Positions 1,251-18,113 of a stretch of 18,113 nucleotides of DNA are shown here, one piece after another. Every line of letters starts with the position of its first letter. Within the stretch, counting starts at the first letter, position 1. The DNA comes from Myxococcales bacterium. GTDB taxonomy: Bacteria; Myxococcota_A; UBA9042. The notes under the pieces were generated by a model that was given only the letters and a program-made list of their open reading frames with translations, was not told the origin of the DNA and searched no databases. Where the stretch lies: the NCBI GenBank assembly GCA_037441385.1, contig JBBISH010000122.1, forward strand, positions 1-18,113, in the 5' to 3' direction. The position numbers and the translations under genes are program-made.

Positions 1251-1382
1251 TACGCACCCCACCTGATTCGCGGCTGTACGGCTTTTCTGACCCGTTCTGC
1301 AACCGGCGAGAATCAGGCGAGGACCCCGGTTCGGGCCCGAAGAATTGCCCGAGTTTTCGATCCGATTCAGACGGAATTGGTA
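1251..1382 (+). repeat. 132-bp interspersed repeat, full copy A
   Basis: TACGCACCCCACCTGATTC...GAATCAGG..GACCCCGGTTCGGGCCCGAAGAATTG...CGATCCGATTCAGACGGAATTGGTA. It is 114/132 identical, ungapped, to the copy at 5462-5593 (hand count). Confidence 0.95.
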
Positions 1383-1390
1383 CCAGGCCA

Positions 1391-2221
1391 CTACGGCTGT
1401 GCTCCGCCTACTCGGAACCGCAAGCAGTAGTAGAAGCGGCTCACCGGCTCGGCGAGCACGTCCCAGGCCTGGGCGGGCAGCGCCTCGCTGGGGCAGTGCG
1501 GATGGCGGTCGTAGAACGTCAGGGCGGCAAACCACAGGCGCGGCCACAGGCCATGGCGACGGCCCTTCTCTAGCTCTTCGTCCACCACCACGATCGGCGT
1601 ACCCGGCCGCGCCACACGCGCCATCTCGGCCAAAGCCTTGCCTGGATTAGAAAAACCGCCAATGCCGCCCACGTGGAACACCCGGTCAAAGCTGCCATCG
1701 GCAAACGGTAGCGCGTGGGCATCGCCCTGCAGCAGGCGCACATCGCGGCGCCCCGACTTGGCCAAGCGGTCGCGGCACACCCGCAGCATGCCCGTCGACA
1801 AGTCCAAGCCCCAGTATTCGCAGGCCACGCCGGGCGGCAGCGCCCGCTGCACCAGTTCTACGTTTACCCCAGTGCCGATGCTGACTTCCAACACGCGCAG
1901 TACTTGCCCTGCCGGCGCCTGGCCCAGCTCCAGCCGGCGGATATAGCCATCGCGCATGGCCGGCTCGGTGCCTTCTAGCTGCCAAATTGGCAAAAGGTAG
2001 TGCACCGCCGGGTCGTGCAAGCGCGGCAGGTTGTCGTAGAAGTGCCGCATCAGGCGGTCGGGGCCGCGCACCCAAGCTTCGCGGTACAGGACCGGCAGGC
2101 CGTGCACGACTGGCCACTCCTCGCGGCAAGCGGTGCAGGCCAGGCCGGGCCCGCGTTCAAGAAGGGGCGCGCGGCAGGTTGGGCAGCGCAGCAGGGCCAG
2201 GTCGGCGGCGGTCAAGCGCAT
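1391..2221 (-). CDS. Class I SAM-dependent methyltransferase with N-terminal Trm112-like Zn ribbon
   Basis: N-terminal CPTC...CTAC...WPVVHGLPVL; motif I VLEVSIGTG; GLDLS; GDAHALPFADGSFD; EMARVARPG. Confidence 0.88.
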   Translation of the reverse strand: MRLTAADLALLRCPTCRAPLLERGPGLACTACREEWPVVHGLPVLYREAWVRGPDRLMRHFYDNLPRLHDPAVHYLLPIWQLEGTEPAMRDGYIRRLELGQAPAGQVLRVLEVSIGTGVNVELVQRALPPGVACEYWGLDLSTGMLRVCRDRLAKSGRRDVRLLQGDAHALPFADGSFDRVFHVGGIGGFSNPGKALAEMARVARPGTPIVVVDEELEKGRRHGLWPRLWFAALTFYDRHPHCPSEALPAQAWDVLAEPVSRFYYCLRFRVGGAQP

Positions 2222-2250
2222 GGTTGGGTCATCCTTGGTCGGCGGTCGCC

Positions 2251-2310
2251 AGTGCGGTCTCTGCTAGTGCGGTCTCTGCTAGTGCGGTCTCTGCTAGTGC
2301 GGTCTCTGCC
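2251..2310. repeat. Tandem repeat, 4 x 15 bp (AGTGCGGTCTCTGCT)
   Basis: Three identical units plus a fourth ending in C, with no spacers. Confidence 0.97.
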
Positions 2311-2336
2311 ACCTGCAGGTCGTACGCAGCTTCGAG

Positions 2337-2445
2337 TCCGCACCCCACCTGATTCACGCCTATACGCTTCTTCTGACCCGTTGTGCAACTGGCCAGAATC
2401 AGGCAGGGACCCCGGTTCGGGCCCGCAGAATCGGCGACTGTCTCG
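2337..2445 (+). repeat. 132-bp repeat family, copy B (similarity lost after about 2445)
   Basis: TCCGCACCCCACCTGATTCACGCCTATACGCTTCTTCTGACCCGTTGTGCAACTGGCCAGAATCAGGCAGGGACCCCGGTTCGGGCCCGCAGAAT aligns ungapped to copies A and C. Confidence 0.92.
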
Positions 2446-2552
2446 GAACAAGTCCATCACTTCCGAATACCGCCGCGGCGAATCGACCCAAAGGCCGTGA
2501 GCCTACGACCCGCCGAGCAGCCGAAATGTTCAAGTTGTCTCATTACAGGACC

Positions 2553-2590
2553 TTGCTGGAATTCTCAAACCGATCCCGACGGATTCCGGA
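2553..2590 (+). repeat. 132-bp repeat family, degenerate 3'-end fragment B'
   Basis: AATTCTCAAACCGATCCCGACGGATTCCGGA aligns ungapped with AGTTCTCGATCCGATTCGAGCGGATTCCATG (end of copy E) and ends flush with the SDR stop codon. Confidence 0.65.
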
Positions 2591-3457
2591 TCAGTTGCCG
2601 GGCGGGTACTTGTCGGCGTCCCACTCGTCGTAGAGCAGGCAGTCAAGCAAGCTCTGCGCCTGGCCACCCGTAAAATCGATGGTCGCGCCGTTGAACCACT
2701 GCGCCTCGGGTCGCAGCAGCAACGAAACAAAAGCCCCCACTTCTGGCGTCTGCAGCATGCGCCGGGCCGGGATGGCCTGGGCGACCACCTCGCAAAAGCG
2801 CTGCCACTTTTCGGGCGTAAAGGCCCGTTTGACCGCGGGGGTATCCACGGTGCCAAAGTTCAAGAGGTTGACGCGGTAGCCCAGGGGCCCCATCTCCCAC
2901 GCCAAGTGGCGGACGTAGACCTGCAGGGCCGCCTTGGCCGCGGTGATGAGTCCAAAGTTGTGGATCAGCGACTCGGAGATGGGGTTGGTCAAGCCAAGCA
3001 GATGCGCCCCCGGCGCAAGCAACTGCCGCTCGTGCAGGGCCTGCGCCCACCACGCGAAGGAATTAGCCATGCTGTCCATGGTCTTGTGAAAGTTCTGCTC
3101 GATGAACGGCCGAAACGCGCCATCGCGACCAGCCAAGAACATCCCCAGCGAGGCGTTGGCAATGGCGTGCACGCAGAGCCGCACCGAGCCCTTGGGGACC
3201 AGGCTGGCCAGATGGTCCGCCGCCGCCGCCACGCCGGCATAGGTACCCACGTCGCCGATATGGAATTCGCTGCGACGGCCCAGACTTGCTAGCTCATCGC
3301 GCAGCTCGGCGACTTGCTCGGGCCAGTGGCCACGGTGGGCACCAAAAACGTGGAGCCCCGGGTCGCGGGCCACGGCGCGGGCGATCTCGCGGCCATTCCC
3401 CGACGACACGCCAAGGATGACCGCCCACTGCTCTACTGCTGCACTTGCTTCGCTCAT
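2591..3457 (-). CDS. SDR oxidoreductase, enoyl-ACP reductase (FabL/FabI)-like
   Basis: Rossmann motif ILGVSSGNG; KAALQVYVRHLAWEMGPLGYRVN; GTVDT; WFNGATIDFTGG. RBS GAGGAG lies just upstream of the ATG. Confidence 0.85.
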   Translation of the reverse strand: MSEASAAVEQWAVILGVSSGNGREIARAVARDPGLHVFGAHRGHWPEQVAELRDELASLGRRSEFHIGDVGTYAGVAAAADHLASLVPKGSVRLCVHAIANASLGMFLAGRDGAFRPFIEQNFHKTMDSMANSFAWWAQALHERQLLAPGAHLLGLTNPISESLIHNFGLITAAKAALQVYVRHLAWEMGPLGYRVNLLNFGTVDTPAVKRAFTPEKWQRFCEVVAQAIPARRMLQTPEVGAFVSLLLRPEAQWFNGATIDFTGGQAQSLLDCLLYDEWDADKYPPGN

Positions 3458-3491
3458 CGTCTCCTCAGTTGGCCTTGGGCGCGGCCGCGGG

Positions 3492-4232
3492 CTACGCCGT
3501 TGCCGAGCGGCGCAGGCCGTCGAGTTGCTGCTGGACCGCCGCCTTCACCGCACGATGAGCGCGCAAGAGCCCGTCGGGCTGGCCATCGTCGCCCACCAGC
3601 GCGCGCACGTCGAGGGGCGCACCGATCGCTTGGCGAATCGCAACCGGGAACGGCGGCGAAAAGGGGAAGGGCCCCAGCGGACCCACGCCCAGCCACAAGG
3701 GCAACCGCGCCGGGATGCGCAAGCGCTTGCCCCACGCTGCGCCATCGTTCAGGCCCAAGTACAGGTCGTCGACACCCAGGGCCGCCACCGGCACAATCGG
3801 CAGACCGTAGCGCAATGCCAGCCTGAGGTAGCCCGTGCGGTCGCCCCAATCGACCTGATAGCGCTCGGTAATCGAGCGACAACCCTCGCGTGTCCCGCCG
3901 GGAGCCACCAGAACGTGCTCGCCGCGCGCCACCGCGGCCACCAACTCGGGACCGTCCGCCGCGACAAAGCCCAAATCTCGGGTCAGCTGAGCCAGCGGCC
4001 CGACGGTAAAGCTGCCGTGGACGATGCCGTGCGGCAAGTAACCCAGGCGACCATGCAAATGCGCAGAAAGAATACACAAATCCCAGGCAAGTGGCCGACC
4101 GTGGTAGCCCACGATGAGCTTGGCGCCGCCGCTGAGCAGGTGCTCCATGCCGGTGGCGGTGTAGCGATGGGCGACGCCAAAGGTGCGCCAACCGCGCACC
4201 CAGGCCTGCACCGCCAGTGGCTGCCGCGCCAA
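3492..4232 (-). CDS. Lysophospholipid/diacylglycerol acyltransferase (PlsC/DAGAT-like)
   Basis: IVGYHGRPLAWD (extended HxxxxD), VAPGGTREG, RTGYLRLAL, PIVPV, IGAP. The TTG start is uncertain. Confidence 0.82.
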   Translation of the reverse strand: MARQPLAVQAWVRGWRTFGVAHRYTATGMEHLLSGGAKLIVGYHGRPLAWDLCILSAHLHGRLGYLPHGIVHGSFTVGPLAQLTRDLGFVAADGPELVAAVARGEHVLVAPGGTREGCRSITERYQVDWGDRTGYLRLALRYGLPIVPVAALGVDDLYLGLNDGAAWGKRLRIPARLPLWLGVGPLGPFPFSPPFPVAIRQAIGAPLDVRALVGDDGQPDGLLRAHRAVKAAVQQQLDGLRRSATA

Positions 4233-5207
4233 CTAGCCCACCTGCCAGAGCATTGCGCCCCAAGCCAGACCGGCGCCCACGCCGATGACCAGCACCCTTT
4301 GCCCGGCTTGGACCTGCCCGGTGCGGTACAGGCTGTCCAGCCCTACCGCCATCGACGCCGAGCCAACATTGCCAGTCCACTGCACTACCGGCACCAGCTT
4401 GGCCCGATCAAGGCCAAAATAGTCGGTAATCTGGTCCAGCATCGCGCCATTGGGCTGGTGCGGGACGATCCAGTCCACCTCGTTCCAGCTGAGGCCGGTG
4501 CGGGCAAAGATGGCTTGCGCGCTCTGGCCCAGGCCCAGCAGCGCCACGTCGGTGATGTCGCGATTACTCTTTGAAAAAACAATGGTCTCGCGCTTGCCCG
4601 TCAGCCCGCCGTGGGCCTGCGTCACGGTGTCGCGCAGCTGGCCGCGGTTGCCAAAGGTGCTGGCCAGCACGCCCAGTCCGGCCGTGGGCTCGGCGGGCAC
4701 AACGATCGCCGCCGCCGCCGCGTCGCCAAACACTGCGTAAGGCCGCGGATCCGCTGGGTCGATGTGCCGCGAGCCCATCTCGGAGGCGACCACCGCGACC
4801 GGCCGGCCGCCGGTAGCGACATGGCGAGCCGCCAAGTCCAGGGCAGTCAAAAAGCCCACGCAGGCGTTGTTGACGTCGAACGCCGCGATGCTGTCCTGCA
4901 CGCCCAAGTGCTCGAGCACGGCGTTGGCATTGGCAGGCATGGCATAATCGCCGCCCGTCGAACAGGTTAGGATGAGCAGCCCCAGGTCGGTGGGTGCCAG
5001 CCCGGCACGGTCCAAGGCGTCGCGCACGGCTTCGGCGGCGCGGCTGGCGATGTCTTGGCCGGGCAGCGCGATGCTGCGGCGATCGATGCCGGTGCGCGCG
5101 TACAGCTCGGCGGGGTCGCGGCCAATGGCGGCGGCTACTTCAGCGGTGCTGCGCGGAGTGCCGGTCTGGCAACTTCCGGTCGCGGCGATGCGCGCGGGCA
5201 AGAACAT
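4233..5207 (-). CDS. 3-oxoacyl-ACP synthase III family protein (FabH/OleA-like)
   Basis: Catalytic triad motifs DVNNACVGF, VPHQPN and GNVGSAS; also RTGIDRR, FGDAAAA and GVGAGLAWG. ATG at 5207 is preferred over the TTG at 5228. Confidence 0.9.
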   Translation of the reverse strand: MFLPARIAATGSCQTGTPRSTAEVAAAIGRDPAELYARTGIDRRSIALPGQDIASRAAEAVRDALDRAGLAPTDLGLLILTCSTGGDYAMPANANAVLEHLGVQDSIAAFDVNNACVGFLTALDLAARHVATGGRPVAVVASEMGSRHIDPADPRPYAVFGDAAAAAIVVPAEPTAGLGVLASTFGNRGQLRDTVTQAHGGLTGKRETIVFSKSNRDITDVALLGLGQSAQAIFARTGLSWNEVDWIVPHQPNGAMLDQITDYFGLDRAKLVPVVQWTGNVGSASMAVGLDSLYRTGQVQAGQRVLVIGVGAGLAWGAMLWQVG

Positions 5208-5243
5208 CCAAGACGCCCCAGCGGCCAAGTGGCCAGGACGGCA

Positions 5244-5272
5244 ATCATGTCATGGGGTCCAGCCCTTGTCGA
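5244..5272 (-). promoter_or_regulatory. Candidate sigma70 promoter for the KAS III cluster
   Basis: The minus strand reads TCGACA-N17-CATGAT with TG before the -10, 36 bp upstream of the ATG. Confidence 0.35.
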
Positions 5273-5296
5273 CCGCCGGGCGTTTGCTTCGATTTG

Positions 5297-5357
5297 GGCG
5301 CCAGATCGGACCCCAAGAGTGACCGGCGTTTTGCTCCCAATTCAAATGGATTGCGGT
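5297..5357 (+). repeat. 132-bp repeat family, highly degenerate 3'-half fragment
   Basis: GGCGCCAGATCGGACCCCAAGAGTGACCGGCGTTTTGCTCCCAATTCAAATGGATT aligns ungapped to GACCCCGGTTCGGGCCCGAAGAATTGCCCGAGTTTTCGATCCGATTCAGACGGAAT at roughly two-thirds identity. Confidence 0.55.
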
Positions 5358-5399
5358 TCACCTGGGCTTGCGGCCCGCCTGTGCGCTCGCTGCAATGGG

Positions 5400-5430
5400 G
5401 TGGCCATGGAGCAAGTGGCCATGGAGCAAG
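5400..5430. repeat. Tandem repeat, 2 x 15 bp (GTGGCCATGGAGCAA)
   Basis: Two identical adjacent units, 5400-5414 and 5415-5429. Confidence 0.9.
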
Positions 5431-5461
5431 CCCCGCACGACGCGGCCGCGCCGGGCCGTCC

Positions 5462-5593
5462 TACGCACCCCACCTGATTCACGCCTACACGCTTCTTCTG
5501 ACCTGTTGTGCAACTGGCGAGAATCAGGAGGGGACCCCGGTCCGGGCCCTGAGAATTGCCCGAGTTCTCGATCCGATTCGGACGGAACTGGTA
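5462..5593 (+). repeat. 132-bp repeat family, full copy C
   Basis: TACGCACCCC...GACGGAACTGGTA. It abuts the TGA (tca, 5594-5596) of the minus-strand gene. Confidence 0.95.
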
Positions 5594-7021
5594 TCATGGG
5601 GCCATTGGGCACGCGGGCGGTGCAATCGCGGTGCATTTTGCGTACGCGCATTGCAGGCCATCGGCACACGCGTCGGCCAGCGGCGTGCAACTCTCGCCCA
5701 CCGCATGGCCCTTGGCGCAAGTCCCCATCGCTTCTGGCGCAGCGCGGTTGCACACCAGACCCGCCGCGCAAGGGGGATTCACCAGCGGATTGCACGCCTG
5801 ACCCAACGCAGGTGGATCGCCGCAGACCCCGGCCACGCACTGCAGCGGTGGTTTGCAGGGCAGCAAGTAACCCCCCTTGAGTCCAGGAGGTTTGCAGGCT
5901 TCGCCCTTGTCGGCCGGCCCGGCGCAGGTGCCTTTGCCCGCGGCACTTCCAGCGCAGTGCAGGTCGTGGCCCGCGCACTGATCGTCGACCTGGCACGGCT
6001 GGCCCACGGTGGCCGGCGGCAGACAAGCTCCAGCGCTGCCCGCGACATCGGCGCAGACCAGGTTGGCGCCGCAGGCGTTTTGAATGGCGCCGCGCATCCA
6101 GTTGCACTCGTCGCCGGCCTTGGGCACGACGCAGGTTCCGGGCTGGCTTGGGTCAGCCGTCACGCAGAGCGCCCCGCCCTCGCAGGTCCAACAGTTGGCA
6201 TTGACGCAAGTGCAAGCGGCGCCAACCTTGCTGAAGGGCTTGCACACGCCGTCGCAGTACGCTGCCTTTTCGCACCAGAAGGTGCAGGGTTGGCCGATCT
6301 TCGGGATCGGCGAACAGCTCATGGTGTCGGTATCGCAGAACTGTCCTTCGGGGCACGGTGTGCCGCAAGGGGTTGCGACCGTCGTTTTTTCGGCGGTGTT
6401 GGGGGTCCAGCAGGTGGTAGCATAGCTGGTCCCCTCGCCCGTCTTGGCGGTGCACCCCTGCCCGCCGGGGTTGTCCTGGTCGCACTTGCCCGGGCACCTT
6501 TCTGTGGTGGCCGTGCAGGCGCCGCTGGCGCAATCGCGGGCAACCGTGCAGGGTGCACCCACGGGCTGCGAGCCGCTCACCACCTCCCAGCACACGGCGG
6601 GCAGCTCGAATTGCCAAACACTCACACGCACATCACAGGCCTTGATCGCGTCGACACAAGCGCGTGCGGCCAGAGCATTGTAGGTAATGTAGGGGTCTGT
6701 AGGGGCCAAGGCCAGCCAGTTCAGGAACGGCCAATTGGCGTTCGACAGAGCGCGACAGCCGCCCACGGTGCCGTAGAGGGCTTCGCCCAGCACCGGACAG
6801 CTCACCGCCGCTTGGCAATACCGGTCCAAGAGAGTGTCGCGAAACTGCTCTTGGGGCAGCGGCGGCCCCGGATAGACTTTGCCAGCGTCGGCCAAGGTCG
6901 CCGCGTCACTGCTGTCGGCCTGGCCCACCGGCGGGCTCGCCGGACTGGAACAGCTGGCCAGAGCCAGCCAGGTCGCCGCCATCGCCAACGCGGAAACGGG
7001 CTTTGCACCTGCGCAATTCAT
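5594..7021 (-). CDS. Cys-rich lipoprotein (Dickkopf-like repeats, myxobacterial type)
   Basis: The ATG at 7021 overlaps the upstream stop (ATGA). Signal peptide with lipobox LASC; repeated G.PC....C..GL.C units. Confidence 0.8.
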   Translation of the reverse strand: MNCAGAKPVSALAMAATWLALASCSSPASPPVGQADSSDAATLADAGKVYPGPPLPQEQFRDTLLDRYCQAAVSCPVLGEALYGTVGGCRALSNANWPFLNWLALAPTDPYITYNALAARACVDAIKACDVRVSVWQFELPAVCWEVVSGSQPVGAPCTVARDCASGACTATTERCPGKCDQDNPGGQGCTAKTGEGTSYATTCWTPNTAEKTTVATPCGTPCPEGQFCDTDTMSCSPIPKIGQPCTFWCEKAAYCDGVCKPFSKVGAACTCVNANCWTCEGGALCVTADPSQPGTCVVPKAGDECNWMRGAIQNACGANLVCADVAGSAGACLPPATVGQPCQVDDQCAGHDLHCAGSAAGKGTCAGPADKGEACKPPGLKGGYLLPCKPPLQCVAGVCGDPPALGQACNPLVNPPCAAGLVCNRAAPEAMGTCAKGHAVGESCTPLADACADGLQCAYAKCTAIAPPACPMAP

Positions 7022-8694
7022 CGCACACACCTCAGCGACGTCGGCACGTCGGTGTACTTGGGGTCGGCGCCCAACGCAGGGTCGCCATTCTCGATCACGC
7101 CGGTGTCGAACCGCACCCGCCAAAGCTGGCCCGTTGGGTACGAGGTTGCGCTCCAGTAGGCGCTGGCGACCTCGGGGCCAAAAACGGCCATGTCGATGAG
7201 CAGTCCCGTGGCCTGCCGGTCGAGCAGACTGGCCAATTCTTGCACCGTGGGCGCCCGCCAACCGCCGCCGGCCAGCGCAAGCGACTGGCAATTGCTCAGT
7301 ACGGCGTAGGTCGACGTCACGACCGCCGTCGCCGCACGCTGCCAAGTCAGGCCCAGGACCTTGTCTTGCACCGTGCCGTCGCCCGCAATGGCAAAGCGGC
7401 CGGTATCGCCCAGTGGATTTGGCGAGTTCAGCTGGCGCACGCAGGCCGCGGCAAACGCCAGCGGGGCCGGCCCAGGCGACGATCTACCCTGGAAGTCAAC
7501 GAACCAAGGGGTCGCCGTACCCTTGACCAACTGCCCCGCGACCAGTTGGCCCACCGCCTTGCTCGGCCAGACGAACACAGTGGACAGCCCGGTCGCTTGG
7601 GCGTTGGCCAGCGAATAGCCGTAGAGCGTGCCCAGCTCGGCCAGCGTGGGCAGGCGCCAGTCGCCATAGCCGGCCAGCTTGAGCTGGGTGCACAGCGCGT
7701 GCGGCGGCGCGCCATAGGTCATGTCGCCAAGCAGCAGGCTTTGGGTCCACATCCGCTTGCTCTGGGTGTCGGTTACCGTCCCGTCGCCGTTGTCGACCAG
7801 CAAGGTCGCCGGGTCGGCTGGCCGTACGCCCCACTCGGGGTAGTCGGGGGCGCAAACTGTCAGGGTCGCCGTGGGAATCGCCACGGCCCCGTGCGAGGAG
7901 CACGCGCAACCGCCCGGCTCGCTGCACACGGCGCCAGCGAAACTGCTGCAGGTCTCTGGAACATACGAGCACGTTTGATCTTTGCAGGCGTCGATCGTGC
8001 AGACTTTGCCATCGCTACAGCCAGCCAGGCTGGCGGTGTGGATGCAGCCGCCCGTCGAGTTGTCGCAGACATCGGCCGTGCACACGTTGCCGTCGTCGCA
8101 CGCGACCGGCGTGCCGGTGCAGCTCCCGGCATGGCAGTGGGCGACGGCGATGCAGGGGTCGCCCGGTGTGCACGCGCTCCCCTCGGCCAGGCTTGCGTGG
8201 CTGCAGCCGCTAGTGGGCTGGCAAGTGTCGGTGGTGCAGGCGTCGCCGTCGTTGCAGGCGGTGGGGGCCACTTTGCACGCGCTGGCGGCGCAAATCCCTG
8301 CGCACAGGCCGGCTTGGCACGTCTGGCCCGGCAGGTCTTGCCAGGCGCAGTGATTGCCGGCGCAGATCGGCGCTTGGCATGGGCGCGGGTTGGCCAGGGC
8401 CGCGCAGTCAGCCTGGGCAGCGCAGCCCACCTTCTCCAGCGGCGTGCATTTGTGTTCGACGCACACCTCCGTTCCGCAGGTGGCGCTGGTGGTGCACGAC
8501 ACGGTGCAGTGCTGGTTCCAGCACAGGCCCGATTCGCAGTCGTCGTGGTTGCCGCAGCTGGCCATGTAGCGGCGCTCGCCCTTTTGGCAGCCGGCGGCCA
8601 CGGCACAGGCAAGGACGAGGAGCCCTATCCAAAGGAACCGACCAATGGTCGCACAGTTGCTCCTATCTGGTCGTGTTCGCCTTGCCCCCCGCAT
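7018..8694 (-). CDS. DUF1566 (Lcl) two-domain lipoprotein with Cys-rich CxDGxxCTxDxC repeats
   Basis: Hydrophobic signal ending AAGC; repeats CNDGDACTTDTC, CDDGNVCTADVC and CSDGKVCTIDAC; two DUF1566 units (DNGDGTVTD..WRLPTLAEL and GDGTVQD..WRAPTVQEL..YWSAT..LRCVR). Confidence 0.85.
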   Translation of the reverse strand: MRGARRTRPDRSNCATIGRFLWIGLLVLACAVAAGCQKGERRYMASCGNHDDCESGLCWNQHCTVSCTTSATCGTEVCVEHKCTPLEKVGCAAQADCAALANPRPCQAPICAGNHCAWQDLPGQTCQAGLCAGICAASACKVAPTACNDGDACTTDTCQPTSGCSHASLAEGSACTPGDPCIAVAHCHAGSCTGTPVACDDGNVCTADVCDNSTGGCIHTASLAGCSDGKVCTIDACKDQTCSYVPETCSSFAGAVCSEPGGCACSSHGAVAIPTATLTVCAPDYPEWGVRPADPATLLVDNGDGTVTDTQSKRMWTQSLLLGDMTYGAPPHALCTQLKLAGYGDWRLPTLAELGTLYGYSLANAQATGLSTVFVWPSKAVGQLVAGQLVKGTATPWFVDFQGRSSPGPAPLAFAAACVRQLNSPNPLGDTGRFAIAGDGTVQDKVLGLTWQRAATAVVTSTYAVLSNCQSLALAGGGWRAPTVQELASLLDRQATGLLIDMAVFGPEVASAYWSATSYPTGQLWRVRFDTGVIENGDPALGADPKYTDVPTSLRCVR

Positions 8695-8931
8695 TCCCCA
8701 CGCTCAGTTGGACCATCGCGGTCGTGCGTGGCAGCCTACGACGCGGGCGAGTTGGCGTCAATGCGGTCTGTCCGTTGAAATTACGGCAGGAACGTGCACC
8801 CACGTGTCCGACAATCCGGCCCTGCAACGAATGTACAGGCCAAAGCCTGCCTGGCGCAGACACGACCCGACTCGCCGCCACCGTGGTTCGCTGACCTGAG
8901 CTCTTGACCGGCCTTGGGCGGGGACGCGCTC

Positions 8932-9417
8932 TCAACCACCAGGAATTTCCAAGGGATACTCGCCCTTGACGACAAAGAACGAGCCGCGGATCGTCCCCGC
9001 CAGCTTGGACTTCTGGGTGGCGAACTTGAAGCGCGCGGCCAGCTCGGCAGGGACTTCCATCCCGTCAGACAGCTTGAAGCCCACGGCCCGTTTCTTGGGG
9101 TCTTCCAGGTGGTACATCACGTTGATCGCCAAGCCGCTTTGGTAGAACACGTAGGTGAACACCAGCGAGTCGGCCTGGACCCGGGCCACCTGCAGCGGCG
9201 CCGACTCGATGGAAAGACCGCGCTCTTTGGTCAAGATGTGGTGCACGTAGGCCAGCAGCCCTGGGTTGGCCGCGGCCGAGTCGACGGCAAAATCCACGTT
9301 GTATTTGTTGGCAAAGTACCGGGCTTCGTTGGCGCGCAAGCCGGCCAAGGCCGCAGCGACCGGCGAGCTGTCGACACCGTCTGTAGAAACCTTTGCAAAG
9401 TCGACAATTTGAGCCAT
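8932..9417 (-). CDS. Conserved hypothetical protein (161 aa)
   Basis: GGAGG RBS 5 nt before the ATG at 9417. Protein-like composition with motifs LAGLRANEARYF and KRAVGFKLSDGM...KSKLAGTIRGSFFV. Confidence 0.8.
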   Translation of the reverse strand: MAQIVDFAKVSTDGVDSSPVAAALAGLRANEARYFANKYNVDFAVDSAAANPGLLAYVHHILTKERGLSIESAPLQVARVQADSLVFTYVFYQSGLAINVMYHLEDPKKRAVGFKLSDGMEVPAELAARFKFATQKSKLAGTIRGSFFVVKGEYPLEIPGG

Positions 9418-9585
9418 CTTGGCCTCCAGATTGCCCCCCAGAGTTTCGGGTTGGGGGCTCGCCACTGTGCAGCCCTGACCATCCACTTGCCAGCCGAATA
9501 CCCCAACCGGCTGCGCACCCACACGAATTGGCCCGCGGTGGGCGCGTCCTGGCCGGTGCAGGCGTCGCCGCGGGGGCGGCAGCCT

Positions 9586-9646
9586 AATCCGTTTGGAGCG
9601 GATCGAAAAACGCGGCTAGTTCCGCCGGCCGGACCCGTTGGGTTCG
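9586..9646 (-). repeat. 132-bp repeat family, degenerate short-form copy
   Basis: Plus-strand TCCGTTTGGAGCGGATCGAAAA matches the reverse complement of copy A (TCCGTCTGAATCGGATCGAAAA) at 19/22. The minus strand begins CGAACCC, like copy D. Confidence 0.65.
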
Positions 9647-9658
9647 CCGTGGCGTCGG

Positions 9659-10582
9659 TCAGGCTCGATCGTCCTGCCGCGGCCGCTCGCCCAGCAGCTC
9701 GGCCAGGCGGGGTGCGGCAAAGTCCACGAAGCGCCGCGTCAGCGCCACCGCATGGCTGGTGGGCGGCCAGACCGCGTGGACGGGCACGCTCGGCACCGTC
9801 CAACCATCCAACAGTACACGCAATTCTCCGCGTTGCACCGCGCCGCGAACCAGGACCTCGGGCAGCACCGCCGCCCCAGCCCCGGCCAGCGCCAGGGCGC
9901 GCATGGCCGCCGCGTTGTCGACTTGGACCCGCGCCGCCACGGCCACCTGGGTGTGCAGGCCCGTGCGAGCGTCTTCCAGCTCGACCTCGACCGCCAGCAT
10001 CGACAGCTGCACGAAAGGCCAACTTTGCAGATCAAAAGGGTTTTGCGGCGCGCGCTGCCGGTGCAGCAAGTGCGGCGACGCCACCAGCACGCGCCGCAGC
10101 TCGCCCACCCGCTTGGCGATCAGACTGCTGTCGCGCAAGTGCCCAGCGCGAATCGCCAAGTCCAGGCCACTGGCCAGCAGGTCGCGCGGCTGCTCGGAAA
10201 AGGTCACCGCCAGCTCGACTTTGGGGTGCACGCGGCTGAACTCAGCCAAGTGCTCGGGCCAGGGCGTATCGGCCAAGAAGGCCGGCGCTGTGACGCGCAG
10301 CGGACCTTGCAGCCCCTCGCCCGCGGCGTTGACGGCGTCCAAGCCCTGCTGCGCCGCGGTCGCCATCGCCGTTGCACCGGCCAGCAGCCGATCGCCCGCC
10401 GGGGTCAGCGCCAGGCGGCGCGTCGACCGATAGAGCAAGGCCACGCCCAGCCGCGCCTCCAACTCCGCGATATGATGACTCACCACCGAAGGCGACAGCC
10501 CCAGCTGCCGGGCGGCGGCGCGAAACGAACCGAGCTCGGCCACGCGCGCAAACACGGCCAGGGGGCGCAACAGGTCGAGCAT
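9659..10582 (-). CDS. LysR-family transcriptional regulator (CrgA/DmlR-like)
   Basis: HTH motif FARVAELGSFRAAARQLGLSPSVVSHHIAELEARLGVALLYRSTR; DLAIRAG; 307 aa. Confidence 0.95.
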   Translation of the reverse strand: MLDLLRPLAVFARVAELGSFRAAARQLGLSPSVVSHHIAELEARLGVALLYRSTRRLALTPAGDRLLAGATAMATAAQQGLDAVNAAGEGLQGPLRVTAPAFLADTPWPEHLAEFSRVHPKVELAVTFSEQPRDLLASGLDLAIRAGHLRDSSLIAKRVGELRRVLVASPHLLHRQRAPQNPFDLQSWPFVQLSMLAVEVELEDARTGLHTQVAVAARVQVDNAAAMRALALAGAGAAVLPEVLVRGAVQRGELRVLLDGWTVPSVPVHAVWPPTSHAVALTRRFVDFAAPRLAELLGERPRQDDRA

Positions 10583-10594
10583 GACGACACCCTT

Positions 10595-10613
10595 TGTTCG
10601 ATGAAGTCGAACA
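10595..10613. promoter_or_regulatory. LysR recognition box (T-N11-A palindrome)
   Basis: Perfect inverted repeat TGTTCGA-TGAAG-TCGAACA, with T10598-N11-A10610, in the divergent LysR/macrodomain intergenic region. Confidence 0.75.
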
Positions 10614-10696
10614 GTCTATCGCCGGCATCTTATCTTGTGCAACAACGCACCTCGCCTAGCTTGAGTGCAGGCCGGGGTGGCCCACCGGATGCGCCG

Positions 10697-11548
10697 ATGA
10701 ACACGGAGCCCATCGTCCACGAACTGATGGATAGGCTTGGCCTGGCCAGGTGCGAATCGGCAACGGCGGCCCGCCAGCGCCTGCAGCATCGGCTGACCCA
10801 GGCGCCCGCGGGGACGCTGCCGGCGGCGGTGTGGCCTGGGCTAGCGGCGTTGTGGCGCGCCGAGGCCGAACAGCGACCGCGCGTGGTGGCGGCCGACCTG
10901 CCCCGGCTCGCGGCCCACGGCTTGGGGGCCCGCGTCGCGCTTTGGCACGGCGACATCACTCACCTAGAGGTCCAAGCCATCGTCAACGCAGCGAATTCGG
11001 GACTGACGGGCTGCTACGTGCCCGGCCACGCCTGCGTGGACAACGCCATCCACCGCGCTGCGGGTCCTTGGCTGCGGCAGGCGTGCGCGGCGGTGATGGC
11101 CGACCGCGGCCGCCCCGAGCCGACAGGAACGGCGACCCGAACGCCGGGCTTCTTCTTGCCCGCCGCGCAAGTAGTGCACACGGTGGGGCCCATCGTGGCG
11201 GGCCGCCGGCCGACCGAGACCGATCGCTCCCAACTGGCGGCGTGCTACCGCAGCAGCTGCGAGGCGGCGGTCCAGGGCACGCAAGGTCTAGCCAGCATTG
11301 CGTTTTGCAGCATCTCGACCGGCCTGTTCGGCTACCCGATCGAGCAGGCAGCCCCAGTGGCGCTGCAGGCCGTGCGGGCGGCACTGCTGGAATTTCCGCA
11401 GCTGGCCCAGGTGGTCTTGGTCAGTTTTTCGGCCCACGACGCCGCGGTCATGGCCGCGGCAGCCAGGGAGGTCCAGGATCTACCACCGAAATTCGCCCCG
11501 GCCGCCGATTTGGGATGCAAATCAAGGCCCAAGGGGCGGAGCGACTGA
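10697..11548 (+). CDS. Zinc-dependent macrodomain protein (protein-ADP-ribose hydrolase, SirTM-linked)
   Basis: LWHGDIT, AIVNAANS, Zn-loop GCYVPGHACVDNAIH, VHTVGP and FCSISTGLFGYP. The start at ATG 10697 is inferred. Confidence 0.92.
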   Translation: MNTEPIVHELMDRLGLARCESATAARQRLQHRLTQAPAGTLPAAVWPGLAALWRAEAEQRPRVVAADLPRLAAHGLGARVALWHGDITHLEVQAIVNAANSGLTGCYVPGHACVDNAIHRAAGPWLRQACAAVMADRGRPEPTGTATRTPGFFLPAAQVVHTVGPIVAGRRPTETDRSQLAACYRSSCEAAVQGTQGLASIAFCSISTGLFGYPIEQAAPVALQAVRAALLEFPQLAQVVLVSFSAHDAAVMAAAAREVQDLPPKFAPAADLGCKSRPKGRSD

Positions 11549-11660
11549 GGCGACCTAGCGGTCGCCGCAGGGAGAAGGGCCCCAGCGGTCGCCCGCAGGG
11601 TGAACGGGTCGCCCCAGTGGGGCAACCCGTAGCTGGGACGACGTAGCAACGCCGAGTTGC
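11549..11660. repeat. Cluster of REP-like hairpins and direct repeats
   Basis: GGCGACC-tagc-GGTCGCC (11549-66); ACGGGTCGCCCC-agt-GGGGCAACCCGT (11604-30); GCAAC-gccga-GTTGC (11646-60). AGCGGTCGCC(C)GCAGGG occurs twice. Confidence 0.6.
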
Positions 11661-11690
11661 GCCCAAGGCGGCGGATCGGGGAGGTGTTGG

Positions 11691-12575
11691 ATGCTTGAAA
11701 ACCCACAGTATTTGGACGCGGTCGCGGATCCGATCACCAAGGCCGCCGAGTGGCTGCAGACCGCCGACCACGTGCTGATCACGGCGGGCGCGGGCATGAG
11801 CGTCGACGCCGGCTTTGACTACACCAGCCGCCAGCAATTCGTGGCGCGTTACCCGGTGTTGGCGGCGCAAGGGCCGCAATGTCGCTACGAGCTGTTTGGC
11901 TACCGCTGGCGCACCCCGGCGCAGCAGTGGGGGCACCTGGCGCGGCACTTAGACGAGCTGCGCTTCCAGCCGCCAACGAACCCGTTGCCATATAGACAGT
12001 TGCAGACTTTGACGGCGGGTAAGGACCGGTTCGTCCTGACCAGCAATGCCGACGACCTGTTTGCCCGCAGCGGCTTTGCCGCCGACCGCGTGTGGACCCG
12101 CCAGGGCAGCTACGCCCGCCTGCAGTGCCTGGCGCCTTGCGCGGATGACGCCACCTGGCTGTGCGAAGACTGGGTGCGCGCGGCAGTGCCCGCCGTGGAT
12201 CTGCCGACCGAGGAGCTGACCGATCCCAGCTTGATCCCCCATTGCCCGCGCTGCGGCGGCCCGGCGATGCTCAACGTGCGCGGCGGCGATTGGTTCGTCG
12301 AGAGGCCGTACCAGGCCCAAGGCCAGGCCTTTGCCGAGTGGTGGGCCCAGGCCCAAAGCGGCCGCCTGCTCGTGCTGGATGTGGGCAGCGGCTTCAACAC
12401 CCCCAGCGTGGTGCGGTGGCCGGCGGAACAGCTGGCGGCGCGTCACCCGCAGGGTCGCTTGCTGCGCGTCAACCGCCATCACCCGCAAGTGCCGGCCCAG
12501 CTGGGCGCGCGCGCCGTGGGTGTCGCCGCAAGTGGTGCCGAGTTGTGGCCGCAGCTCTTGCAGAAACTGGGCTGA
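11691..12575 (+). CDS. Class M (macrodomain-linked) sirtuin, SirTM-like mono-ADP-ribosyltransferase
   Basis: GAGMS, TSNAD, QGSY (Gln at the sirtuin catalytic His position), QCLAPC...CPRC Zn ribbon, LNVRGGDWFVE and GFNTPSVVRWP. RBS GGAGGT at 11680-85. Confidence 0.9.
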   Translation: MLENPQYLDAVADPITKAAEWLQTADHVLITAGAGMSVDAGFDYTSRQQFVARYPVLAAQGPQCRYELFGYRWRTPAQQWGHLARHLDELRFQPPTNPLPYRQLQTLTAGKDRFVLTSNADDLFARSGFAADRVWTRQGSYARLQCLAPCADDATWLCEDWVRAAVPAVDLPTEELTDPSLIPHCPRCGGPAMLNVRGGDWFVERPYQAQGQAFAEWWAQAQSGRLLVLDVGSGFNTPSVVRWPAEQLAARHPQGRLLRVNRHHPQVPAQLGARAVGVAASGAELWPQLLQKLG

Positions 12576-12640
12576 TACGAACCCCGGTTCGGGCCCGAAG
12601 AATTGCCGAAGTTTTCGAGCCGATTCGGCCGGATCCGGGC
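12576..12640 (+). repeat. 132-bp repeat family, 65-bp internally deleted copy D
   Basis: TACGAACCCCGGTTCGGGCCCGAAGAATTGCCGAAGTTTTCGAGCCGATTCGGCCGGA begins immediately after the sirtuin TGA. Confidence 0.9.
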
Positions 12641-12807
12641 TGGGCCGTGCTTTGGCAAAACCGCGGTCGACGGCAGCGACGGCGGTCCCGGAACGCTGGA
12701 CCTGTGCGACGCGGCGCCTGCGGGATGCTTCCACACCGCACGCGAGCGGCGCCTACTGCGCCAGCGGGCCCCACAGCACAGCCCAAATGCCGCCAAAGCC
12801 GACCGGT

Positions 12808-12836
12808 TTGACAGCGCCGGCTGCCTTCGCTACCCT
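12808..12836 (+). promoter_or_regulatory. sigma70-type promoter for the DUF2061 gene
   Basis: TTGACA (12808-13)-N17-TACCCT (12831-36). Confidence 0.7.
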
Positions 12837-12845
12837 TAACCAAGG

Positions 12846-12870
12846 TTCCCTATAGGCGTAGTAGGAATTA
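12846..12870. promoter_or_regulatory. Candidate repressor operator (Rrf2/CymR-like dyad)
   Basis: TTCCCTAT-AGGCGTA-GTAGGAATTA is an imperfect dyad (CCTAy-N7-rTAGG) just downstream of the -10. Confidence 0.45.
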
Positions 12871-12916
12871 TACTTGTTCCCGCCGCGACCCGCCGACCCA
12901 AGGATGCTAGCCGCCG

Positions 12917-13153
12917 ATGTCGATCCAGCTGCACGACACCCACTGGCGCACGTTCGTCAAAGCGCTGAGCTACCGGGCGGTTTCCACGGTTGTCACCGGT
13001 GCGGTTGCCTGGTTTGCCACCGGCGAGTTGCCCACGGCCTTGGCTATCGCTGCGGGCGACTCGCTGCTCAAGGTGGGGCTGTTCTATGCCCACGAGCGCG
13101 CCTGGACGCGGATTCGCTTTGGCCAGGCCAGGCCGCCCGAGTACGAGATCTAG
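12917..13153 (+). CDS. DUF2061 small membrane protein
   Basis: RTFVKALSYR...two hydrophobic helices...LFYAHERAW; 78 aa. Confidence 0.88.
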   Translation: MSIQLHDTHWRTFVKALSYRAVSTVVTGAVAWFATGELPTALAIAAGDSLLKVGLFYAHERAWTRIRFGQARPPEYEI

Positions 13154-13477
13154 TCGGCAAGCCACAAATTCGTTCGGGTTGCCGTCGTTGGCGTACCAGG
13201 CGGCGCGAGCCACACCTGGGGGTCGCAGGGGCGGCGCGGAGCGCGAAGCCACGCTGCGCTCGACGAGTCCATGGCAGTGGCCAAGGCCGAGCTGCCGAGG
13301 CCGAGGCACCGGCGGACGCCGTGCCGGCCCCTTCAAGACGGCACCGGCCGCCACCGCTCGCTTGGGCCGCCAAGCTTGACTGGCGCAGGCCGGTGGCGCA
13401 GGCTGGCACGGCACCGCTCCGCCACCGTTCGGTGGGATCTTGCCGTGGGGCGCCTTGACCGCGAATGGAGAGGCACG

Positions 13478-13954
13478 ATGGCGACCTTTGCCGCACAGCA
13501 TCAGTCCGAACACGCCCTGCCCGTCGCACCCGCCGCGGCGCTGGCCCACTGGAGCGATCCAGACGCCCAGCTGCGCGCCCGGCCCGAGGTGGTGGCCAGC
13601 GAGCGGCCCGCACCCGGACAGTTGCGGCTTCGTCTCAAAGAGATGAAGCACGGGCCCACTGCGTTCGCGGGCGACTACACGCTGCAATTTGCGACCGAGG
13701 GCACCTTGCTGCGCTGGACCACGGTGTCGAGCGGGCCGCTGCAGGTCGAAGGCGAGGCGCGTTTTGCCCAAACGGCCAGCGGTTGCTCGGTGGTGGTGCG
13801 CGAGACGGCGCGCGTGACATTGCCAGTGCCGGGATTGCTGGCCGTGGCCTTGCGCCCCCTCGTCGAGACCATGATGGCGCGCGGCAGCAAGGGGTTTGCC
13901 GAGCGCATGGCCGCCGACATCGCCGCCCGGGCCCGCCGGCCAGTGGGAACCTGA
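13478..13954 (+). CDS. SRPBCC/CoxG-like ligand-binding protein
   Basis: GGAGAGG RBS before ATG 13478; 158 aa. Helix-grip pattern of V.P...WSDP, a series of beta-strands and a long C-terminal helix. Confidence 0.65.
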   Translation: MATFAAQHQSEHALPVAPAAALAHWSDPDAQLRARPEVVASERPAPGQLRLRLKEMKHGPTAFAGDYTLQFATEGTLLRWTTVSSGPLQVEGEARFAQTASGCSVVVRETARVTLPVPGLLAVALRPLVETMMARGSKGFAERMAADIAARARRPVGT

Positions 13955-14140
13955 AACGAGGGTCGAGTCAAAAATCCCTTGCTTTCCATGCTGTAACAAC
14001 ATGCAAGCGTGACTCGGCGGCGAGTCTCGCCCACTATCGTCCAGAGCAACCCGACGCGACGGGTTCCTGCGCTCGTGCCGGTCGAAAGGTCCGTGGCGGC
14101 TGCGCTTTGCGTCTTGTATTCGCGCGCTTGCTGGTGCGAC

Positions 14141-15718
14141 ATGGCCCTTGGCTACAGCCGCGTGTTTGCCCCCTACATCGTTCCGCAAGGCGGCCCGCTC
14201 GACGGGGTGCTGGTCCCCGAGCCGCGCTGGGCGGCGCTCATGGCGATGGGACAGTTGCGCGCCACGGTGGGCGCTGGCGCTCTGACGGTGGAGCAGCACA
14301 CGCGCGGCGTCGGCTGGCTGCAGGGCCTGCACCAGGTGGCGACGCGGCTGCGGGCGGCGCTGGCGCCCGACGCGGTAGGCCAGATCCCCACCGAAGGTGA
14401 CGCCGAGTTTGCCTATGCGCGCCTGGCGGGCACCAATCCTCTGCAAATTCGTCGTGTCCGTTCGATCGGCCGGCTACCGGCCTCACTCCGCCTGGACGAC
14501 AACACCCTGGAGCGACTGACCACCACCCGGCGCTCGCTGGCCGAGCGGGCGGCCGACGGCGACCTGCTGCTGTTGGAGTACCCTGAGCTGGCGGTGCCCG
14601 ACGCGGCGGCGCTGCAGTCCGGCCGGTTCGTGGCGCCCGTCAGCGCGCTGTTCTGCCGCGCGCCCGAGCTCGACAGCCCGTTTCCGCTGGCGCCGCTGGC
14701 GATTGCCTGCCCGGCCGATGGCTTTGCCGGCGAACCGCGCACCGTCACCCCGCTGGATGGTCCGGCCTGGCAGGCCGCCAAGCGGATGGTCGCGGTCGCC
14801 GACATCAACACCGCGGAGCTGGTGCTGCACCTGGCGCGCGCCCACCACATGATCACCCCGTTCGCGGTGGCGCTGCGCCGCTGTCTCGATCGCCAGCACA
14901 CACTGTACCGCTTCTTGTATCCACACTTGCGCTTCAACCTGTTCGTGGACCGCATGGCCTGGCAGGCCGGCGTGCGCAAGGACAGCGGCGTGCTGGTGGG
15001 CAGCCTGGCCGGGACCAGCGCCTGGTCGCAACAGGTGGCCAAGTCGCTGTACCACAACCAGTCGTTTCGCGAGCAACAGTTCGAGCGCGACCTGCAGGCG
15101 CGCGACGTCGCCGATCTGCCGATCGAGTATCCGTACCGCGACGACGGGCGGCTGTTGGTGGGCGCGCTCGAGCGGTTCTGCCGCGGCTTGGTCGCCCGGG
15201 CCTATCCCAGCGATGCGGAGGTGAGGGCGGATGCGGCGTTGCAGCGCTTCGTGGCCGATGTGGCGGCGCCCGAGGGCGGCAATGTGCGCGGGCTGCTGGC
15301 CGGCGAACGGCTGGAGACCCTAGAGGAGCTGGTCGACCTGCTGAGCCAGATCCTGTTCGTCGCCGGGCCTTTGCACGCGCTGGCCCACTACTCGTCGGCG
15401 GCGCAGCTGCAAGATGCCCACGCCAATCCTTCGTGGCTCAACACCAATCCGCTCCAGGCGCCAGAAAGGAGCCACCCCGGCATTCTGGGTGCCATGGCGC
15501 AGTACCGCCGCGTGATCTCGACCAACGTGCGCTACGGGACCCTGGGCGATTTTGCCGACGTGCCCTTTGGTCAGGACCCGCAGTGGCAACCACTTATCGG
15601 CGAGCTGCAGCGCGAACTGGTCGAAATTGAGAGCGAAATTCAGCGGCGAAACCAGCAGCGCCTGGCACCGTTCGTACATTTCTTGCCGTCGCGGATCCCC
15701 AACGGCATTACGGTGTAG
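14141..15718 (+). CDS. Lipoxygenase family protein (catalytic domain only)
   Basis: EFAYARLAGTNP, WQAAK, HLARAH, LYPH, YPYRDDG, HALAH and C-terminal PNGITV. ATG 14141 is preferred as start (frame open from 14009). Confidence 0.9.
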   Translation: MALGYSRVFAPYIVPQGGPLDGVLVPEPRWAALMAMGQLRATVGAGALTVEQHTRGVGWLQGLHQVATRLRAALAPDAVGQIPTEGDAEFAYARLAGTNPLQIRRVRSIGRLPASLRLDDNTLERLTTTRRSLAERAADGDLLLLEYPELAVPDAAALQSGRFVAPVSALFCRAPELDSPFPLAPLAIACPADGFAGEPRTVTPLDGPAWQAAKRMVAVADINTAELVLHLARAHHMITPFAVALRRCLDRQHTLYRFLYPHLRFNLFVDRMAWQAGVRKDSGVLVGSLAGTSAWSQQVAKSLYHNQSFREQQFERDLQARDVADLPIEYPYRDDGRLLVGALERFCRGLVARAYPSDAEVRADAALQRFVADVAAPEGGNVRGLLAGERLETLEELVDLLSQILFVAGPLHALAHYSSAAQLQDAHANPSWLNTNPLQAPERSHPGILGAMAQYRRVISTNVRYGTLGDFADVPFGQDPQWQPLIGELQRELVEIESEIQRRNQQRLAPFVHFLPSRIPNGITV

Positions 15719-15850
15719 CATGGAATCCGCTCGAATCGGATCGAGAACTGTGGAAATTCTGTGGGCCCGAACTGGGGTCCCCGCATGATTCTCGCCAGTT
15801 GCCAACCGGGTTACGGAAGCCGTACAGGCGCAAATCAGGTGGGGTGCAGA
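15719..15850 (-). repeat. 132-bp repeat family, full copy E (inverted)
   Basis: The reverse complement reads TCTGCACCCCACCTGATTTGCGCCTGTACGGC...GACCCCAGTTCGGGCCCACAGAATT...CGATCCGATTCGAGCGGATTCCATG. It fills nearly the whole intergenic gap and is flush with the lipoxygenase TAG. Confidence 0.93.
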
Positions 15851-15855
15851 TAACC

Positions 15856-17208: not shown

Positions 17209-17242
17209 ATCGCCGATTTATCTAGACTTTCTCCGCATGTCC

Positions 17243-17306
17243 GCACTGTCCTACTCGGCACTGTCGAACTCGGCACTGTCGAACTCGGCACTGTCGAACT
17301 CGGCAC
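17243..17306. repeat. Tandem repeat, about 4.3 x 15 bp (GCACTGTCGAACTCG)
   Basis: One variant unit (GCACTGTCCTACTCG), three identical units, then GCAC. Confidence 0.95.
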
Positions 17307-17369
17307 GGCGAGTCGCAGCAGGCGCCCACTTGCGGCCCGCGTGGGGCTAGAGACACGACCGGTGGAGCG

Positions 17370-17395
17370 AGTTACTGAACGAATGTTCAGTAACT
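17370..17395. terminator. Perfect 11-bp hairpin between convergent genes
   Basis: AGTTACTGAAC-gaat-GTTCAGTAACT, nested inside CTAGAGAC (17347-54)...GTCTCTAG (17402-09). Confidence 0.6.
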
Positions 17396-17405
17396 GATCG
17401 AGTCT

Positions 17406-18113
17406 CTAGTTGGGGAATTCCGCGCTGTAGGCCATGCCGGCGCCGTTGGTGCCGACCGGCGGCGCTAGCGTGGCCGAAAGGGTCGACTGGGCAGCGGTGA
17501 ACGAAAGGCGAATGCGGCCCAGACCGCCAGCGCCGCCGTTGCAGCCACCACCGTTGCCGCCGGCACCGCCCACGGCACTGACCGCCGCGCCGCTCGCGAC
17601 CTTCAACGTGGGCGCGCTCAGGTAGATCAGGCCGCCCGACCCACCGCCGCCGCCACCGCTGGTGTTCACGGTCGCGCCGCCCGCGCCGCCTTTGGCCAGG
17701 ATGCTGCCCGTGACGTTGATCGAGGTGGGGCTCGCGACCCGCACCACGCCACCGCCGCCGCCACCGCCGCCGCCGCCGGCCTGGGAGCAGCTGTAGCACT
17801 GGCCGCCGCCGCCGCCGCCGCCCGAACCAGGCTGGAACGTGCTGGCCACGGCAAGGTCGTTGGCCGCAGTCGTGCCGATCGAGCCGCCGCCGCCGCCGGG
17901 CGCCGCCCACGAGCCAATGTTGGCCCAAACCCCGGCGCCACCGGCATAAACGCCCGGCCCGGTGCCACCCGGAGCGCTGGCGGAGGTGGGCGTGCCGCCG
18001 CCGCTGGCCGAGCCGCCAAACGATCCGCCGCCGGCACCGCCCGTCATGCCCCAGGCGCCCGCGCCGCCGCCGCCGCCATAGCCGCCACCGCCGCCGCCAG
18101 CGTCGCAGACACC
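17406..18113 (-). CDS. Glycine-rich C-terminal part of a large surface/secreted protein (start lies outside the window)
   Basis: Frame is open to the window end; GGGGGGGVVRV..I.VTGSILAKGG..GGGGSGGLIYL..GGAGGLGRIRL motifs; TAG at 17406-08. Confidence 0.85.
   Translation of the reverse strand, partial: GVCDAGGGGGGYGGGGGAGAWGMTGGAGGGSFGGSASGGGTPTSASAPGGTGPGVYAGGAGVWANIGSWAAPGGGGGSIGTTAANDLAVASTFQPGSGGGGGGGQCYSCSQAGGGGGGGGGGVVRVASPTSINVTGSILAKGGAGGATVNTSGGGGGGSGGLIYLSAPTLKVASGAAVSAVGGAGGNGGGCNGGAGGLGRIRLSFTAAQSTLSATLAPPVGTNGAGMAYSAEFPN

Follow-up and report, generated by a model that had tools for sequence, protein, structure and literature searches.

A family of 132-bp miniature inverted-repeat elements in a Myxococcales genome and its probable mobilization by an ISAva6-like branch of IS630

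Copies of a 132-bp repeat in the window and in the host genome

The stretch of DNA analyzed here, referred to as the window, is the 18,113-nt contig C122 of the genome assembly of a Myxococcales bacterium (G000, hereafter the host genome; 6.63 Mb, 221 contigs, 91% complete). Between its genes, among them those for a methyltransferase, a short-chain dehydrogenase/reductase (SDR), a macro-domain protein, a weakly sirtuin-like protein and a lipoxygenase, lie copies of a 132-bp repeat. This repeat is, with near certainty, a miniature inverted-repeat transposable element (MITE), and it probably owes its mobility to a transposase from the ISAva6-like branch of the insertion sequence (IS) family IS630.

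The copies in the window were scored against a profile built from genome-wide copies, with the reversed window serving as a control (best match, E 0.64). All eight stretches listed in the original prediction, which was made from the letters of the window, match this profile (E 1e-45 to 0.021), and they do so on both strands, as had been stated. The two poorest matches (E 0.015 and 0.021) are weak, yet better than the control. The features are the following:

1251-1382, + strand: full 132-bp MITE, young; profile E 1e-45; reads TAC...GTA; flanks TCA (left) and CCA (right)
2337 to about 2432 plus 2553-2590, + strand: old MITE copy in two pieces; profile matches 2339-2437 (E 3e-28) and 2553-2585 (E 0.021)
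2430-2554 (boundaries approximate), strand not assigned: repeat of ~120 bp, unrelated to the MITE, within the old copy; 8 other matches in the genome
5297-5357, + strand: degenerate fragment, right half or 65-bp form; profile match 5298-5351 (E 0.015, weak); right flank TCA
5462-5593, + strand: full 132-bp MITE; profile E 2e-41; reads TAC...GTA; flanks TCC and TCA
9583-9646, - strand: degenerate fragment, right half or 65-bp form; profile match 9583-9637 (E 8e-4)
12576-12640, + strand: 65-bp short form; profile match 12579-12638 (E 3e-15)
15719-15850, - strand: full-length, more diverged MITE with decayed ends; profile E 2e-33; reads TCT...ATG

A partial copy at 2337-2445 and a fragment at 2553-2590 had been listed as separate elements. 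The former is a real copy whose match ends near 2432-2437 and not at 2445, and the two are the halves of one old copy split by the ~120-bp repeat, so that the window holds seven elements. The top identity of 86% was recovered in the ungapped comparison of the copies at 1251 and 5462 (78 and 74% in the other comparisons among full copies). The TAC...GTA ends hold for these two copies only; the third full copy, at 15719-15850, lacks them. All copies in the window fall outside called genes, and the predicted lack of a mobility gene was corroborated by a Pfam scan of 16 open reading frames (ORFs) of the window, which gave no match to a transposase, integrase, RAYT or reverse transcriptase family.

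The copy at 1251-1382 and the methyltransferase stop codon lie 8 nt apart, and the right flank (TCA) of the 2337-2590 copy is the stop codon of the minus-strand SDR gene. Likewise, the right flank of the copy at 5462-5593 serves as stop codon for a minus-strand gene that ends at 5594, and the left flank (TGA) of the short form at 12576-12640 does so for the sirtuin-like gene. The copy at 15719-15850 adjoins the TAG stop codon of the lipoxygenase gene on one side; on the other, 5 nt separate it from the ATG of the following gene, which encodes an FAD oxidase. Its G-rich left end, next to this ATG (window 15840-15858), might supply a ribosome-binding site.

Across the family, conservation drops sharply at positions 1 and 132, and T-N-A lies outside both ends. 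The terminal inverted repeats are imperfect and about 20 bp long (among 177 distinct copies, pairing is kept in 74-96% at 10 of the 19 outermost positions); the element reads TAC...GTA, and the terminal TA belongs to the element and not to the duplication. Flanks are available for 271 full copies, of which 210 have the exact length of 132 bp and 125 carry an identical triplet on both sides. In the 126 copies with TNA on both sides, the middle base is the same in 114, versus about 42 expected from the table margins; a duplication of 4-9 bp was present in none of the 271 copies. The target duplication decays with age, being kept in 46 of the 62 youngest copies and in 4 of the 20 oldest. Removal of 132+3 bp gave 38 junction-spanning matches in 271 tests (31 gapless), some of which are trivial self or element matches. 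There are several clean empty sites in other repeat families (e.g., C193 and C34 versus C84, 62/62 nt); these carry one TNA and no TA from the element ends, a pattern that does not fit a 2-bp TA duplication. Internally, the sequence of positions 7-24 recurs in inverted form at positions 55-72. The 65-bp form, exactly 65 nt long in 16 of 18 candidates and flanked by identical triplets in six, unites the left end with the right half, the joint lying at an ACCCC microhomology.

A profile search of the host genome returned 424 matches, 281 of them near-full, and none when the genome was reversed as a control. The copies range in age from identical twins (15/210) down to less than 70% identity to the consensus; 62/210 have at most two differences from another copy, and there are two young subfamilies, seven bases apart. 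Copies are hence abundant outside the window, and the long-active, high-copy, non-autonomous element that had been proposed is borne out by the number of matches, their age spread and the empty sites. The original prediction had overlooked the terminal inverted repeats and the 3-bp target duplication; together with the empty sites and the lack of a transposase gene within the element, these substantiate the MITE among the identities that it had offered.

A DNA search of 60 relatives found the family in two genomes of the same genus, G007, where it is abundant, and G001, where it occurs once. G023, which belongs to another genus, carries sister elements, ~201 and ~313 bp long, that share the ends of the MITE and likewise duplicate TNA; the 313-bp element (G023, L025:1504-1816) contains a long internal palindrome with GTCATTCCCGCG arms. 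A scan for the end pattern in 401 genomes of the phylum detected only G000 and G007. In genome contigs it gave at least two loci, one of them a chance match and the other a full copy that is not counted as independent of the search of relatives. In metagenome contigs it gave 62 loci, none with a profile match or a partner end, the recurrent ones lying inside ordinary genes. Viral contigs yielded none in two scans, a related-locus search there confirmed 0 of 23 loci, and blastn against plasmid and phage records produced nothing better than E 4.

Candidate sources of the transposase

We scanned 34 transposase loci from the host genome and its relatives for MITE-like ends at the element boundary. 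The one lead was an IS630 remnant (L133; PF13358, NF033545) in the same-family genome G023, which ends ...GGATTCGTA followed by TCA. Its relatives are annotated as IS630 transposases, including that of "IS630-like element ISAva6," and are present in 10/401 genomes of the phylum. In a tree of the DDE domain, 23 rows of the branch split from three other IS630 rows at 100/100; among these three outside rows, L130 and L131 show TA beside the ends that are seen.

Credible end pairs were obtained at 17 of 26 loci of the branch, and all of them read TAC or TAT at one end and GTA or ATA at the other. Six loci gave no pair, and the pairs of L133, L182 and L186 were set aside as false; the register of L181 was re-read by eye, and L170, whose left part is missing, was excluded. 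Identical 3-bp flanks border 13 of the 17 elements, and 12 of these 13 are TNA. Hence, the terminal letters (TAC...GTA) and the TNA duplication are common to the MITE and the autonomous elements of the branch. The ends of L161, L171 and L187 match the common MITE ends at 15/20 bases, whereas five other IS ends match at 5-7/20. L161 is an internally deleted copy in the same-family genome G021, and the other two elements come from Deinococcus (L171) and Methylocystis. Within the branch, end identity to the MITE ranges from 8 to 15 of 20, and with the first three letters left unscored 18 of 40 branch ends lie above the 95th percentile of 1685 control 20-mers.

In our view these sequence comparisons make it quite probable that the MITE is mobilized by a transposase of this ISAva6-like branch. 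ISAva6 would then be a relative of the parent and not the parent itself, because its own ends match at only 8-9/20. Acting in trans, the branch transposase would bind the ~20-bp ends, make a 3-nt staggered cut at TNA and thereby cut and paste the non-coding 132-bp element; repair of the gaps left by the staggered cut would yield the 3-bp duplication. The donor enzyme may be unassembled, transient or lost.

Several observations weigh against this assignment. The host genome gave no branch transposase (PF13358, 0; PF13592, 0; no tblastn match at E<=0.01 for any of 10 queries), a negative result limited by the collapse of multi-copy elements in an assembly of this completeness and contig number. 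Moreover, no contig-end stub of the branch was found among the recurrent contig ends, although many MITE copies are nearly identical, and no branch transposase was found in G007, the other genome rich in the MITE. None of the autonomous elements goes beyond 15/20, and the best matches are a selection out of a large number of ends. One of the two end-pair scans required TA at both ends, so that the terminal letters are partly given by construction; the other scan did not, and duplication was never a criterion. The interior of the MITE compared with that of the branch elements was significant in one of 10 tests and borderline in one. Finally, an active IS5 element resident in the host genome uses the same TNA target.

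That the MITE is moved by this IS5-family element, which by its GAG ends and TNA flanks we take to be IS1031-like, is improbable in our judgment, even though no other TNA-duplicating transposase turned up in the host assembly. The element, recognized by an NF033580 fragment, is a collapsed, active multi-copy IS: 16 of its ends lie at contig edges (e.g., L202-L205; C84, C98, C146, C149, C156 and C216), all with a TNA flank, and the end pieces are 98-99% alike except for one at 91% that runs into a neighboring MITE. Of these 16 ends, six lie directly against the right end of a MITE, and both elements have inserted at one hot site within a third repeat (3 IS5 ends, 11/271 MITE copies). However, IS5 begins with GAG and the MITE with TAC, and the IS5 end resembles the MITE ends no more than unrelated IS ends do (6/20; profile score, -18.7). 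The six MITE copies next to an IS5 end are distinct from one another, and an old one is among them, as would be expected if IS5 had inserted into a TNA duplication that was already there instead of moving the MITE; we infer that IS5 uses the right-hand duplication of the MITE as a target. A slightly smaller chance still goes to another DDE transposase with 3-bp duplications, be it ISAzo13, an ISL2/Harbinger-like enzyme or one from an unknown family. An ISAzo13 element in G004 (L128, the single case compared) has the 3-bp flanks TTA and CAA, but its ends start with GGG and match the MITE at 5/20, and ISAzo13 was rejected as the parent on this ground. G000 and G007 gave no PF07592 match, in a weak search for which no control genome was positive; PF13359 and PF13340 were each found in 0/5 genomes, and apart from the IS630 remnant none of the 34 transposase loci had MITE-like ends at its boundary. 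Two PF01609 loci of the host genome (L021 and L022, presumably IS1182-like and IS1634-like) were rejected as a source, their ends being unrelated to the MITE. Paired MITE ends 400-4000 bp apart in the host genome gave four weak candidates, none convincing as an autonomous element, and its orphan MITE ends are nested, truncated or decayed copies.

Very improbable, finally, are two further readings, that of a hairpin element of the REPIN or PATE type mobilized by an HUH enzyme and that of a structured RNA present in many copies; a REPIN-like element and a structured RNA had been entertained in the original prediction. In favor of such readings, an internal inverted repeat joins positions 7-24 to positions 55-72, and at 16 of its 18 positions between 89 and 99% of the 177 distinct copies keep the pairing. 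The fold of one copy also stands out (z -3.3), and copies are enriched between convergent genes (69/254 versus 634/4016). Nevertheless, one arm of this hairpin is the second copy of the left end sequence, and two-sided changes are lacking among the commonest pair types; folding as DNA is unremarkable in three of four cases (z -1.3, -0.6, -3.3 and -1.1), and Rfam returned one unrelated match at E 0.97, so that the RNA reading finds no support. The element also has inverted ends and a variable 3-bp direct duplication, a combination that points to a DDE transposase instead of a REPIN-type mechanism and that, to our knowledge, HUH-moved elements do not leave. RAYT and reverse transcriptase genes are absent from the 16 window ORFs; no genome-wide search for RAYT or IS200/IS605 was made.

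Insertion at stop codons and within genes

Our own gene caller predicts 4737 genes in the host genome. Relative to these, the 271 copies divide into 190 in intergenic DNA, 59 next to a stop codon, 17 in partial overlap with a gene and five within a gene. The statement that all copies are intergenic is thus correct for the window and fails genome-wide. Among the 228 copies with a TNA flank, 55 (24%) sit at stop codons, as compared with 11.3% of the non-coding or stop TNA sites (p 4e-8, the sites not being independent). The change of the stop-abutting share with age (young, 22/120; middle, 9/66; old, 28/85), though not monotonic, makes us lean toward selection over targeting. Every TNA is a stop codon on one strand, so that a gene remains intact when the element inserts at its stop codon, and selection would shape where copies survive.

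Four of the six frames of the element are open, because of which the MITE can sit inside genes, and element plus duplication amount to 132+3 bp, or 45 codons; with these properties, a few copies could persist inside proteins. All five in-gene copies are in frame, which is partly a result of how the caller works. They affect the HATPase_c domain of a CheA-like kinase, the HATPase_c domain of a hybrid histidine kinase, the tail of a Ser/Thr kinase, a site close to the end of a DsbA-like protein, and a helix-turn-helix protein. In a stricter test of 270 copies, strong support was obtained for the two histidine kinases only. The same test flags two old copies, G000:C135:6530-6663 (134 bp) and G000:C82:6023-6155 (133 bp). 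Both are bordered on either side by coding-like sequence, their filled frame contains a stop, and they may be gene-breaking insertions.

Alignment of the CheA-like kinase with a solved CheA structure shows that the copy leaves a ~48-residue gap between two aligned blocks. Among the sequencing runs listed, one DNA run, possibly the source, and no RNA run gave a match. Contigs of this DNA run bridge the left junction of the CheA copy and cover the right one with a 26-nt overlap. An empty-site joint, either for the CheA copy or for that at 1251-1382, was not seen in these contigs, which is no proof of absence. Ten genomes of the same genus hold no orthologue of the CheA-like kinase at E<=1e-30 and hence no orthologous empty site.

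Neighboring features and comparison with known systems

Several other features of the window and of the repeats deserve mention. Intact relatives of the ~120-bp repeat nested in the old copy are bounded by TTA-GGG...CCC-TTA and resemble the ends of the ISAzo13-family element in L128, so an element of that kind may be its parent. A second MITE family (~240-290 bp, CCTGCC... inverted ends, 8-bp duplications) is nested in copies of the 132-bp element elsewhere in the genome (G000:C64:21581-21818 and G000:C50:28414-28693). Three further dispersed repeat families occur at window 11467-11686, 13149-13238 and 17285-17413, with up to 42, 26 and 52 matches in the genome, respectively; the first and the end of the macro-domain gene overlap, and the third has CTAG near both ends. 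Short tandem arrays of 15-bp units are present at 2248-2307 and 17240-17314. The macro-domain gene and the weakly sirtuin-like gene that follows it (window 10697-12575) lie beside a LysR regulator, an arrangement similar to macro-linked sirtuin pairs. The lipoxygenase-family gene (PF00305) occupies window 14141-15718.

The elements closest to the MITE are the ISAva6-like IS630 elements ("IS630-like element ISAva6," NC_007410.1, and unnamed ones in Thermus, Deinococcus, Methylocystis and Stanieria and on Azospirillum plasmids), which have the same ends, imperfect repeats of ~20 bp and the same TNA duplication; they are 1.0-1.2 kb long and encode a transposase, whereas the 132-bp MITE encodes none. 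As a repeat family the MITE is ordinary, a new family of a well-known type of selfish DNA. No named family had been recognized for it, and none is found in Rfam; its novelty is nonetheless lower than supposed, because an IS630 branch with a named member, ISAva6, has matching ends.

The textbook target of IS630 is TA. In the accessible passages of one source, a 2-bp duplication is listed for the IS630 entry ISTth6 (PMC6352166), and the RUP element of Streptococcus pneumoniae is linked in those of another to the transposase of IS630-Spn1 by end similarity, with TA as the target (PMC2229807). As far as these passages describe it, RUP, which is grouped here with other TA-flanked bacterial MITEs, resembles the MITE in being short, high-copy, mostly intergenic, inserted into other mobile DNA and attributed to IS630, and differs in its TA target and in having stops in all six frames, whereas the MITE has a TNA duplication, is GC-rich and has four open frames. 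The MITE is not a canonical, RUP-type IS630 element, because the 2-bp TA duplication is not found at its empty sites.

Rickettsia palindromic elements are in-frame repeats that add a peptide within proteins. For the 107-bp form of the Correia/NEMIS repeat, ORF fusions are described in the passages seen (PMC2229807). Likened by behavior and not by sequence comparison, both resemble the MITE in adding a fixed peptide without breaking the frame, with only 5/271 MITE copies lying in called genes. The small non-coding repeats (SNRs) of Deinococcus radiodurans (60-215 bp, ~295 copies, one family changing copy number; excerpts of PMC11276467 and PMC1978522) resemble the MITE in size and copy number, and these excerpts give neither a mobilizer nor a duplication for them; the Deinococcus IS630 element of the branch, L171, has ends close to those of the MITE, and the SNRs may be linked to this branch. 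The portion of PMC10969869 consulted makes no mention of IS630 or Myxo-.

A broader proposal can be put forward tentatively, and we regard it as a possibility that leans toward doubtful: the branch, spread over cyanobacteria, Deinococcus-Thermus, Alphaproteobacteria and the present phylum, would cut with a 3-nt stagger at TNA, a behavior undescribed as such, and the 132-bp MITE would hide at stop codons and, as 45 codons with its duplication, in proteins, being tolerated in two histidine kinase ATPase domains, while its duplication would serve as a landing site for IS5. We found no paper stating a 3-bp duplication for an IS630 branch, in a search with subscription journals and supplements outside its scope; ISfinder may record it.

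Collectively, named records document one IS630 branch that duplicates three bases, and a TNA duplication by itself does not identify IS5. The 45 residues inserted naturally into a CheA-like kinase and into a hybrid histidine kinase are testable cases of the tolerance of proteins toward repeat-derived peptides.

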